Part shown: positions 17,342 through 20,000 of the stretch, piece by piece
How positions within the stretch are numbered: the first letter of the stretch is position 1
How the letters are laid out: each line of letters starts with the position of its first letter
Virus record (IMG/VR): IMGVR_UViG_3300032116_000172
DNA from: an uncultured virus (IMG/VR IMGVR_UViG_3300032116_000172)
Taxonomy: Duplodnaviria; Heunggongvirae; Uroviricota; Caudoviricetes
Reading direction: 5' to 3' (one strand)
Length of the DNA: 20,000 nucleotides
Position numbers and translations under genes: made by a program
The notes under the pieces: model-generated
Database searches by the model: none
What the model saw: the letters and a program-made list of their open reading frames with translations, nothing else
Told to the model about the DNA's origin: nothing

Positions 17342-17677
17342 TCAGCACTTACCGCCGTAAGCCATCTTGACGATCTTACCTTTGGTTTTACCCTTTTTGG
17401 CTAGACCATCAATACTAGGAGCCGCAGTCTTGACCGCGCCACCTTTTTTCATGCCTTTCATTTCGGCTTTTTCATGCTTGATCATGGCTTTAGGAGCGCC
17501 TTTTTTCTTCATGAACGCAACTTCTTCCTTAACCATCTTTTTTGACTCAGCCATACCGCCTCCAGATTTAGTAAACTCTTTCCCCACAGATTGCGGCACA
17601 CCGGCCTTCTTAGCAAATGCAGGGTTGTGGGCTACAGCCTGCATAAACCGTTCTTGCTTTTTACTAACGGCGGGCAT
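17342..17677 (-). CDS. Small basic protein (MKKGG, IDGLAKKGKTKG and MAYGG motifs)
   Basis: 111 aa beginning MPAVSKKQERFMQAVAHNPAFAKKAGVPQSVGKEF; TAATG coupling. Confidence 0.8.
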   Translation of the reverse strand: MPAVSKKQERFMQAVAHNPAFAKKAGVPQSVGKEFTKSGGGMAESKKMVKEEVAFMKKKGAPKAMIKHEKAEMKGMKKGGAVKTAAPSIDGLAKKGKTKGKIVKMAYGGKC

Positions 17678-17919
17678 TACACCATCCGCCCTTTAGTTTT
17701 ACCGCGTTGAGCGCAACCGTCTGCGCGTTTGGAAGCTGAACTAATTACTCCACCTTTAGCTTTTTTAACAGGTTTAGTCGGCCCTTCGTCAGGCGACGGC
17801 GGCTTCATACCTTCCCTAAAGATGTCAGCTTCTTTTTTGTCCTTACCTTGCGCGGGCGGAACGTAGGGCTTCTCTTCCCTCAACTGTTTTTTAAGTTCTT
17901 CAAAAGTGGGCGCGGCCAT
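17677..17919 (-). CDS. Small protein ending KAKGG...SASKRADGCAQRGKTKGRMV
   Basis: 80 aa; TGATG coupling; shares an identical 18-aa C-terminal motif with the upstream gene. Confidence 0.8.
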   Translation of the reverse strand: MAAPTFEELKKQLREEKPYVPPAQGKDKKEADIFREGMKPPSPDEGPTKPVKKAKGGVISSASKRADGCAQRGKTKGRMV

Positions 17920-18377
17920 CAGATCACCCTGCCTTTCGTCTTACCACGCTGGGCGCAGCCATCAGCACGTTTGGAGGCAGAACCCACGGAACCACCTTTC
18001 TTGTACCCAACGCCAGCTTTCACACGCTCAACTGCCAAGTCCATTTTGCGCTTGTCACGCGTAGCTCTAGTTTCTTTGTCGCGGTTGTATTTGTCTAGCG
18101 GGGAAGAATCAGAACCATCGCGGGTAGCTTGACCACGCTTCATCACATCTGCGCCAGATTCCATAGTGTTTACACTGATAGGAAATTCCTGCGCACCTCT
18201 AAGACGGGGGCGGGGCATTTTAGGGCGAGGACGGGGGCGTGGGGTAACGTCAGGTTCCAGCGCAAGATTCCTGCCGGGACGCATACCATCGTCTTCAGCA
18301 GGAGAACCGGCAAAAATTTTATATTTGCCTTCTTCGTCGCTCATACCACCAACGGCATACCGTTTGGTTTTCTTCAT
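17919..18377 (-). CDS. Low-complexity charged protein ending YKKGG...SASKRADGCAQRGKTKGRVI
   Basis: 152 aa; ATGA overlap; contains YAVGG, a PRPRPRP tract and the shared C-terminal motif. Confidence 0.8.
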   Translation of the reverse strand: MKKTKRYAVGGMSDEEGKYKIFAGSPAEDDGMRPGRNLALEPDVTPRPRPRPKMPRPRLRGAQEFPISVNTMESGADVMKRGQATRDGSDSSPLDKYNRDKETRATRDKRKMDLAVERVKAGVGYKKGGSVGSASKRADGCAQRGKTKGRVI

Positions 18378-19150: not shown

Positions 19151-19645
19151 TTAGACGTTTTGCATTCCGACATACGGGTCTTCTACGTAGTACACAATGT
19201 ACCCTGAACAAGGGCCTGTACCAGCGGATGCGCCAGTACGTGCAGTCAGGTAAACCATTTGTGTCAACGACATAGGAACGGCAAACGAAGCACCGGGCAA
19301 CGTAGCTGTAGCTAGTGTAGTAGTTGTACGAGTAGTCGGTTGCTCGTTAATCAAAGCAGCAGGGCTGGCTGTACCAGAAGTGTACAAGGTGAAACCGAAG
19401 TCCAACGTACCTGCGGTAGTAGATGCAACAGTAGTTGCGATCTCAATGATTACCGCGCCCGCTGGCAGGATAATGTTTTGACCAGTAACGGAAGCAGTAG
19501 TAGCTTGGTTTTTGAGGTTGCCAGCTTGAGTAGCAATATCAGCGACGTACCATTCGGCAGTCATAACGCCTGTGCCACAATACGCGGTGCGAGTTTGATC
19601 GCCGCCGCCCGAACGCCAAATACTTTGAGTGGTAGAAATACCCAT
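19151..19645 (-). CDS. Putative capsid decoration / minor capsid protein
   Basis: 164 aa, Thr/Ala-rich beta-sandwich pattern (IILPAGAVIIEI...GTLDFG...GYIVYYV), immediately downstream of the major capsid gene. Confidence 0.65.
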   Translation of the reverse strand: MGISTTQSIWRSGGGDQTRTAYCGTGVMTAEWYVADIATQAGNLKNQATTASVTGQNIILPAGAVIIEIATTVASTTAGTLDFGFTLYTSGTASPAALINEQPTTRTTTTLATATLPGASFAVPMSLTQMVYLTARTGASAGTGPCSGYIVYYVEDPYVGMQNV

Positions 19646-19654
19646 TTGAATTTT

Positions 19655-19730
19655 CCCTCATGCGGTTAGGTATGTCGATCTGCATGAAGTCAGGCCGGGA
19701 CCTGTTCGACATACCGGATATTCCCGGAAT
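19655..19730 (-). ncRNA. Pseudoknotted structured RNA, probably the Mu-gpT-DE (Mu-like gpT downstream element) motif
   Basis: Three perfect interleaved helices on the minus strand: CCGGGA/UCCCGG (19722-27 with 19695-700), GGUAUGUCGA/UCGACAUACC (19706-15 with 19669-78) and UCAUGC/GCAUGA (19682-87 with 19658-63). Located just 3' of a gpT-like capsid gene, the context described for that motif. Confidence 0.7.
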
Positions 19731-19735
19731 ACTTC

Positions 19736-19746
19736 CTTATATCATA
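19736..19746 (-). promoter_or_regulatory. Possible -10 / extended -10 element upstream of the RNA element
   Basis: Minus strand TATGATATAAG contains TATGAT and TGnTATAAG. No convincing -35 is present. Confidence 0.25.
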
Positions 19747-19747
19747 T

Positions 19748-19774
19748 AAAAAAGGGGGCCGGAACCCCCTTTTT
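19748..19774 (-). terminator. Rho-independent terminator after the major capsid gene (potentially bidirectional)
   Basis: Minus strand AAAAA-GGGGGT-TCCG-GCCCCC-TTTTTT directly after the tandem stops TAA TGA; A/T tracts on both flanks. Confidence 0.88.
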
Positions 19775-19776
19775 CA

Positions 19777-20000
19777 TTACGCACCAGCGGAGCCAAAAGC
19801 GCCCAGCGGATCAGAGACGCCGAAGCTATAACGCTCACGAGCCTTGTAACGAGCGTTGCCAGTATCGAAATCTCCGTCCATCGACTGCGACAGCGGCATA
19901 CGAATGAAGTGCTTCAGGCCGTTAGGCACATCTGTCGTCAGGAACCAAGCGTTCGGATCAGTCAGATAGTGGTTAACGGTGTAGCCTTCAGGGATCGAGC
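19777..20000 (-). CDS. Major capsid protein, Mu gpT-like (C-terminal fragment)
   Basis: Not in the ORF track (truncated by the window). Translation SIPEGYTVNHYLTDPNAWFLTTDVPNGLKHFIRMPLSQSMDGDFDTGNARYKARERYSFGVSDPLGAFGSAGA, followed by a terminator. Confidence 0.88.
   Translation of the reverse strand, partial: SIPEGYTVNHYLTDPNAWFLTTDVPNGLKHFIRMPLSQSMDGDFDTGNARYKARERYSFGVSDPLGAFGSAGA

Follow-up and report, generated by a model that had tools for sequence, protein, structure and literature searches.

A predicted double-pseudoknot leader ahead of a capsid cement-like gene in aquatic phages and its proposed kinship with the orphan motif Mu-gpT-DE

Structured RNAs that govern translation initiation are known from riboswitches as well as from protein-bound operators. 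The preQ1, SAM-II and guanidine-III translational riboswitches are pseudoknots over the Shine-Dalgarno (SD) sequence, and the scaffolding protein of phage P22 is subject to autoregulation. Phage T4 gp32 represses its own mRNA at a structured operator (PMC535899), as does E. coli S15 at the pseudoknot of rpsO (PMC3985624). The described motif closest to our element is Mu-gpT-DE (RF03012), which comprises 53 positions in Rfam, is filed as an sRNA and has no catalogued function. It reportedly originates from the work of Weinberg et al. in 2017. The term 'gpT' is absent from the main text of PMC5737381, while Table S1 of PMC7657543 gives a ZWD version of the motif with 11 pairs, versus 9 in Rfam, together with two extra covarying pairs which, as far as that table reveals, may overlap pairs described here.

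The DNA analysed here, called the window, is a stretch of 20,000 nt from the uncultured virus IMGVR_UViG_3300032116_000172 (Caudoviricetes), in which a preliminary description had noticed a double-pseudoknot RNA behind the capsid gene. All coordinates of the element refer to the minus strand, where the capsid stop (19777) precedes it and the ATG at 19645 follows. According to its ORF and its relative in locus L003, the upstream gene is the 3' end of a gpT-like major capsid protein gene (19777..19998, minus strand), which runs off the window and whose product we take to be HK97-type. The full-length relative in L003 showed 91% over the window part and matched PF25209 (E 6e-13) and PF10124, Mu-like_gpT (E 9e-11); the closest cultured relatives of the capsid protein were MinM2, Pag-Yong1 and Pra-JY27 (72%), followed by HTVC027P, DSL-LC04 and HTVC023P (62-65%) and by CRP-901 and CRP-902 (56%). 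Downstream, the gene at 19151..19645 (minus strand) encodes a 164-aa protein for which structure prediction suggests a capsid cement-like architecture of a flexible N-terminal arm and a jelly-roll body.

Between these genes, three perfect helices are interleaved in the order P1-P2-P1'-P3-P2'-P3' along the RNA. The 5' strand of P1 (CCGGGA, 19722..19727) pairs with 19700-19695 over 6 bp, and the main helix P2 has 10 bp between its 5' strand (19706..19715) and its 3' strand (19669..19678). P3 joins 19687-82 with 19663-58 over 6 bp, or 8 bp counting G-U. Enclosed by P2 are two further segments, the first of which (19691..19705) consists of the junction base A19705 and the hairpin P4 (19704-01 with 19694-91), its loop 19700-19695 being the 3' strand of P1. 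The second (19679..19690) comprises the junction base A19690, the lone pair C19689-G19680 (P6), an 8-nt loop that contains the 5' strand of P3, and the junction base A19679. Behind P2, the hairpin P5 (19656..19665), of 2 bp in the window (CC 19665-64 with GG 19657-56), presents the 3' strand of P3 as its 6-nt loop 19663-58, and its 3' side overlaps the SD sequence GAGGG (19655..19659), which is followed by the ATG 9 nt further on. Four of the five SD bases of the window are in this way inside P3' or P5'. A competing hairpin P0 (19727-24 with 19717-14) uses the first four bases of the P1 5' strand.

These helices are real. The interleaved 6/10/6 pattern appeared in none of 1500 dinucleotide shuffles of the 102 nt and any 10-bp helix in 6 of 1500, and scanning the window in 398 tiles per strand revealed the pattern at this place only. 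The three helices, the CAGG/CCUG stem with its UCCCGG loop (here P4), the competing CCGG hairpin and the 3' strand of P3 running into the SD had all been pointed out in the preliminary description and are indeed present; two elements, P5 and the lone pair, it had overlooked. Nested folding predicts the terminator of the capsid gene together with P2 and P4, the latter two amounting to -17.5 kcal/mol in nested energies.

Relatives were collected through the two flanking proteins, resulting in 160 viral loci. Helix search without constraints and a descriptor gave false placements at loci with a bulged P2, and alignment A1 excludes six loci with false descriptor placements (L035, L037, L061, L063, L113 and L149). 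From 87 aligned instances we built a covariance model, R1, on P2 and P4 only, which had matches in 94 sources out of 100 and in 47 out of 73, 87 of these 141 being its training sequences, and which later found the true motif in five of the six excluded loci, not in L149. The 32 sources without an R1 match consist of 15 loci with the short form discussed below, two variants recognised by eye (L291 and L338) and 15 unclassified ones. After removal of two cut matches and of duplicates, 135 distinct instances remained, in which the strands of P1, P2 and P3 paired far better with their own partners than with swapped ones (0/200 swaps each). P1 had at least 5 bp in 134 of the 135 instances, and the three pairs of P4 were formed in 129, 133 and 135 of them.

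Covariation analysis led to the same structure. In alignment A4 (47 rows), 22 of 23 pairs showed both-sided change, the covariation score was 0.674 versus 0.225 for shuffled alignments (0/500), and P1 was 96.6% paired although it is absent from R1; P3 reached 60.6% because the model misregisters P3'. Under a tree-aware null applied to 85 rows of standard spacing, from which 46 non-standard rows (the window included) and four duplicates had been excluded, all of the top 24 column pairs were proposed pairs. Fifteen of them had E<0.05, namely seven of the nine pairs of P2, six of P3, one of P1 and one of P4, with P3' positioned by its pairing and the values for P3 therefore partly circular. When 143 rows, the window among them, were used in a second run, 11 pairs had E<0.05. 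The helices P1 to P4 of the preliminary description do covary across the 135 distinct relatives. A scan of metagenomes with the core pattern, blind to the flanking genes, provided 79 distinct loci among the 80 matches listed, four of which look like chance matches; P2 was present in 73, P1 in 74, P3 in 69 and P5 in 65 of the 79, and a capsid gene lay at most 900 nt upstream in 63. All five near-complete genomes carried one motif match per record, the long form, i.e., that of the window, is present in DSL-LC04 and HTVC023P, and the core is kept in both freshwater and marine phages. Judged by this sequence conservation, the roughly 70 bases preceding the cement-like gene form a conserved, doubly knotted RNA.

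By comparison of the relatives, the core of this RNA is a three-way junction of P2, P4 and the lone pair P6 joined by three single-A linkers. The junction base corresponding to A19705 is A in 131 of 135 instances, all three junction adenines together are near-invariant (124/135), and the bulge (A-C ... G-A) has 12 nt, as in the window, in 121 of the 135 long forms. P6 is C-G in 118 instances, U-A in 13 and U.U in 4; a scan for variants without the C gave 127 matches, of which 11 were distinct and carried P1 and P2, and all 11, spread over several P3 subtypes, have U at this position with A (8) or G (3) as partner and can still pair. Under the tree null the lone pair remained below significance (E 0.58-0.68; seven same-branch changes). 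In L084, L103 and L106, P6 has grown to 3 bp, and the loop of this stem is an anti-SD sequence that pairs with UGAGG. Hairpin P5 has 3 bp in most relatives, its three pairs flanking P3' so that the latter becomes a 6-nt loop; the main subtypes are CUU/AAG (32), CUC/GAG (31) and GUG/CAC (22). All three pairs are Watson-Crick in 88 of 132 relatives, compared to a mean of 24.8 and a maximum of 40 in 2000 swaps, and collapsing to 42 types left 1.98 versus 1.20 pairs, while no single P5 pair was significant under the tree null (E 0.11-4.8 per pair).

The three junction strands are all R-A-Y in 115 of 135 instances and covary in a ring, the sets being GAC/GAC/GAC in 52, AAC/GAC/GAU, the type of the window, in 42 and GAC/GAU/AAC in 8. 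Such a threefold R-A-Y junction could be the pocket of a riboswitch, in which an ion or a small molecule would dock P3 and P5 over the SD; the compact fold with two pseudoknots at the ribosome-binding site and the maintenance of the core across freshwater and marine phages and ahead of unrelated products would agree with it. The small fold and a last helix that takes SD bases are indeed shared with the preQ1, SAM-II and guanidine-III riboswitches; their topology is different, however, and the window has neither an Rfam match nor a ligand-related gene context. Moreover, near-invariant unpaired positions number only about three, all helix sequences vary freely, the regulated gene is a structural one, and no Rfam riboswitch matched, so we consider a riboswitch improbable.

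The preliminary description had connected the element with Mu-gpT-DE. RF03012 did not match the window at gathering, nor at E up to 10 (membership cut-off 49 bits), and no other Rfam family reached gathering in the window or in 20 loci; in 20 more loci, searched at E 0.05, a single sub-threshold match lay over a terminator, and the nine weak matches in the window at E up to 10 were far below gathering, eight of them overlapping the terminator. The run in which RF03012 matched sister phages in the same slot (L111, 67.4 bits; L119, 57.5 bits) detected none of 17 long-form loci, and its cut-off was reached by none of five related records. Identity with RF03012 is ruled out, as the model misses the window and 17/17 long-form loci; the part of the proposal that stands is kinship, expressed in a shared core and a shared slot. 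Both RNAs follow a gpT-like capsid gene, recognised for the window by PF10124 in the L003 capsid, and precede a gene whose N-terminal arm is of the same kind; both have the core P2-A-P4-A-C-loop-G-A-P2', for which the Rfam consensus reads GAC three times, and the register of the P3 strand is the same. The window shows the outer stem, the single A, the inner hairpin and a 3' bulge AC...GA within the 12-13 nt of Mu-gpT-DE. Its outer stem does not take up the SD in the 3' strand, and the AUG is not 12-13 nt past the bulge. Unlike RF03012, whose P2 of 4-6 bp contains the SD and whose P3 lies on the start codon, it has a 10-bp P2 without the SD, the added P1, a separate P5/P3' hairpin and SD and AUG at the 3' edge.

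The form catalogued as RF03012, the short form, was collected by a pattern scan giving 78 distinct sequences, whose bulge measures 13 nt in 66 cases and 12 nt in 11. R1 matched none of 15 short-form loci, meaning that neither model detects the other form; L211 and L295 answer to the short-form pattern as well as to R1. In the short form, start codon and codon 2 (AUG-GCU/GGU) are paired by the hexamer that precedes the last GA, with 5.18 Watson-Crick pairs versus 4.72 for swapped partners (0/2000; n=78), a difference that comes mainly from one covarying pair among related sequences, G-C in 54 and C-G in 18 of the 78, tracking Ala or Gly. The structure line of Rfam leaves the 13-nt bulge unpaired and shows neither the lone pair nor this start-codon pseudoknot. 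UUG-start short forms (L167, L189 and L231) retain the pairing of the start-codon region. The short form occurs in CRP-902, and P1 is absent from it as well as from L291. In a capsid tree made quickly from 125 rows, five changes are needed to place the seven short forms, at least three of them forced by well-supported branches; long and short forms are interleaved and the arm types of the products mixed, which suggests that leader and gene are exchanged as a cassette. Since core, slot and intermediates are shared, we infer that the two forms are kin. The long form is a larger, uncatalogued relative of RF03012, and in our set of loci the catalogued form is in the minority. We found no description of the long form in the literature, where the supplementary data of PMC5737381 and PMC10690425 may contain it or the short-form pseudoknot.

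With regard to its position, P3' is followed by the start codon after 9-15 nt in 126 of the 135 instances, whereas the distance from the capsid stop to P1 varies from 33 to 1572 nt. More than 150 nt, mostly with an ORF, separate the capsid stop and the element in 41 of 129 loci, and in those 41 the element remains beside the downstream start. Because the spacing to its start is kept and the capsid distance is variable, the element belongs to the downstream gene, with which it travels, and not to the capsid gene. ORFs are inserted between the capsid terminator and the leader in many relatives, e.g., L045:1618-2403, a GIY-YIG/NUMOD3 protein, and L110:2320-2910, without a Pfam match, and the slot looks like an insertion hot spot.

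After the capsid stop, the window has an intrinsic-terminator-like hairpin (19746..19777, minus strand) with a 10-bp core (19774-65 with 19758-49) and a U tract, which a simple terminator scan of the window did not call; in some relatives the motif follows directly after the terminator. A putative -10 box TATAAG with a TG before it (19736..19741, minus strand) would place the transcription start near 19730, 2-3 nt before P1. A TATA or TANNNT word at -16 to -12 from P1 was found in 108 of 134 relatives, versus 11 and 9 in two control windows; the consensus promoter scan of the window did not call the proposed promoter. The loop of the capsid terminator hairpin contains the putative -35 position or lies close to it (window 19759-19765, minus strand; likewise in L033, L044 and L339). 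In several relatives this loop reads TTGCAA, and a TTGAC, TTGCC or TTGCA word stands at the -35 position in 52 of 134. The -10-like box just upstream suggests that the element is a 5' leader.

This placement raises the possibility of a leader that works free of any factor, the knot protecting the 5' end, whose first bases are bound up in P1, and setting a fixed low or delayed initiation by its folding kinetics. The -10-like box, which puts the start at P1, would suit it, and so would an RNA independent of the product sequence. P0 occurs in 79 of 135 instances and is thus not universal; kept in 55 of 58 CCGGG types, it could order the folding, but only 1 of 24 CUAGG types has it. The missing P1 of the short form and of L291 also speaks against such a leader, a plain hairpin would do for the purpose, and the near-invariance of the junction adenines suggests a recognised surface or a precise fold. 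On balance we regard it as a serious but rather unlikely explanation.

Several different architectures close on the ribosome-binding site. In the long form, P5 usually takes up the beginning of the SD; P3' and P5' together cover at least three SD bases in 99 of 132 relatives and none in 21, whose fold abuts the SD without covering it (the GUG/CAC subtype totals 22). In the short form, P2' is itself the SD and P3 takes the start codon, and in HTVC027P the P3 partner overlaps AGGAG. By their sequences, long form, short form, anti-SD variants and HTVC027P would all end in pairing SD or start-codon bases, the closing helices being short and the junction unchanged. Two other leaders were noticed. 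That of Pag-Yong1 (L337:3404-3520), before a 'minor capsid protein' gene, is different: the loop of a GC-rich hairpin is able to pair with the SD region, and another segment with the start codon; it is possibly an independent route to the same closure. The remote variant L328:2423-2523, without an R1 match, has an outer stem and two inner hairpins, and one loop could form pairs immediately ahead of the start codon; the gene concerned is of a different arm type.

Of the functions offered in the preliminary description, covariation and geometry uphold a structured RNA that acts on the ribosome-binding site behind it, whereas the ribozyme option found no support. That the element might set the ratio of capsid to accessory protein is plausible. 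A small self-cleaving ribozyme would free the cement message from capsid read-through transcripts, and size and double pseudoknot resemble small ribozymes; one subtype even contains CUGACGA, similar to the conserved hammerhead core CUGAnGA (PMC10085705). The window, however, has CUGACUU and other subtypes CAGACU or CAGAUG, i.e., no hammerhead core, and no Rfam ribozyme matched in the window and 40 related loci. As a promoter of its own would make cleavage unnecessary and the short form overlaps SD and AUG, self-cleavage is very unlikely. Two loop-mediated pairings among head genes could also be intermolecular and belong to a trans-acting or multimerising RNA for head assembly. Loop-loop pairing between molecules is known from the prohead RNA of phi29. 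Our motif has no terminator after it, though, its spacing to SD and AUG is fixed, and the start codon is part of the short form, which makes this the explanation we would least expect to hold.

The controlled gene gave no match in Pfam or PHROG, and these searches did not find an RNA-binding domain in its product either. Its AF2 model (pLDDT 81) is a jelly-roll with a disordered N-terminal arm, and the best three structural matches in both searches were the cement-bearing entries of Pam1 (7EEL), KHP40 (7DOU) and GP4 (8H89). Their Foldseek E values range from 3.6e-3 to 7.8e-3, none reaching 1e-3, and their Z scores of 8.1 (rmsd 3.0, 104 aligned), 8.0 (4.7, 113) and 7.5 (3.3, 119), at 14-18% identity, are scarcely above those of unrelated jelly-rolls (Z 7). 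With moderate confidence, we assign the modelled protein a fold like that of solved cement proteins. The same-slot gene has been deposited as 'cement protein' in DSL-LC04 and as 'minor capsid protein' in Pag-Yong1. Cements of the Pam1/KHP40/GP4 type are trimers at three-fold axes, and the Pam1 cement's N-terminal loop contacts the capsid protein (PMC9698820); the window product shares their jelly-roll body, N-terminal extension and, as a prediction, the trimer. A three-copy model scored 0.89 versus 0.00 for the best of three controls, which a likeness to solved cement trimers may explain; of 30 solved pairs 20 came up to the score mark, as did 1 of 23 single chains, and the runs had a contact agreement of at least 57% and a pLDDT of at least 78. 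The product is thus predicted to be a homotrimer.

Among 119 products, those standing behind the same RNA subtypes fall into at least seven BLAST clusters, and three N-terminal arm types occur. A pattern search for arms misses the THLGP class, so that its 'no arm gene' rows are unreliable. In L081, L082, L089, L100, L300, L324 and L340, the downstream genes have a conserved arm of the type M-x-x-TTFSGPVRS fused to bodies in separate BLAST clusters, which suggests a shared capsid anchor with exchangeable surface domains. Elsewhere in the window (17342-18377, minus strand), three adjacent small basic ORFs, none with a Pfam match, end in a repeated motif, KKxxGG...SASKRADGCAQRGKTKGR in two of them and a looser copy in the third, and similar tails occur in L003.

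Considering fold, position and gene together, the RNA probably limits the amount of cement-like protein made. With middling confidence, we propose a translational operator whose folded state would be OFF and which a phage structural protein probably keeps closed. Against it speak the 21 of 132 long forms that leave the SD uncovered, the single-pair results for P5 and the lone pair under the tree null, the promoter scan and the relatives whose motif comes right behind the terminator. With a promoter just upstream, a transcript separate from that of the capsid gene and its terminator would begin with the element as its first ~75 nt. P0 would form first and might occupy the 5' end until P2 is wound. 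In the three-way junction, as the comparison shows, both loops are captured: the 5' end takes L4 (P1), the P5 loop takes L6 (P3). P2 and P4 are expected to be constitutive and dominant once transcribed, with P3 adding a marginal 6 bp, so the switch would lie in marginal short helices, P3/P5 in the long form and P2/P3 over SD and AUG in the short form, whose closure would hide the SD and block initiation. In the weakest step of the scheme, the junction would be the recognised part to which the structural protein binds, keeping the fold shut, and free repressor drawn off onto capsids would let the cement be translated. Where a cement gene has a promoter of its own, the most economical logic would be repression by a protein that capsid assembly draws off. 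The operators of T4 gene 32 and rpsO/S15 and the scaffolding protein of P22 likewise combine structured RNA at the initiation region with a product matched to its assembly partner, and, as in the first two, a pseudoknot lies at or over the ribosome-binding site of the controlled gene; in contrast to these operators, the fold of the window differs and its product would be a capsid-surface protein without a known RNA-binding role.

Two candidates for the regulator come into question, the unassembled trimeric product itself, because a pseudo-three-fold junction suits a trimer, and the free major capsid protein. The mixing of RNA subtypes with at least seven product clusters and three arm types counts somewhat against sequence-specific autoregulation by the product, and since RNA subtypes are shared by unlike products, a shared factor such as the capsid protein is favoured. 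A bolder version of the operator, in which the pseudo-three-fold junction is a symmetric site, three R-A-Y strands ringing three adenines, and is read either by capsid-surface trimers that differ in sequence or by a small ligand of matching symmetry, we consider unlikely.

For the orphan Rfam motif, the present analysis means a testable function and a corrected structure, with the lone pair and the start-codon pseudoknot added. It would be unusual for a capsid decoration gene to be controlled at the level of RNA, and whichever ligand it may have, a multi-pseudoknot of 70 nt whose junction is ring-paired makes a good target for structural work. Should the symmetric-site reading be true, it would be a new class of regulatory RNA coupling virion assembly to translation, in which one core has been rewired several ways onto the SD or the start codon in a very abundant group of aquatic phages, and orphan RF03012 would gain its function.
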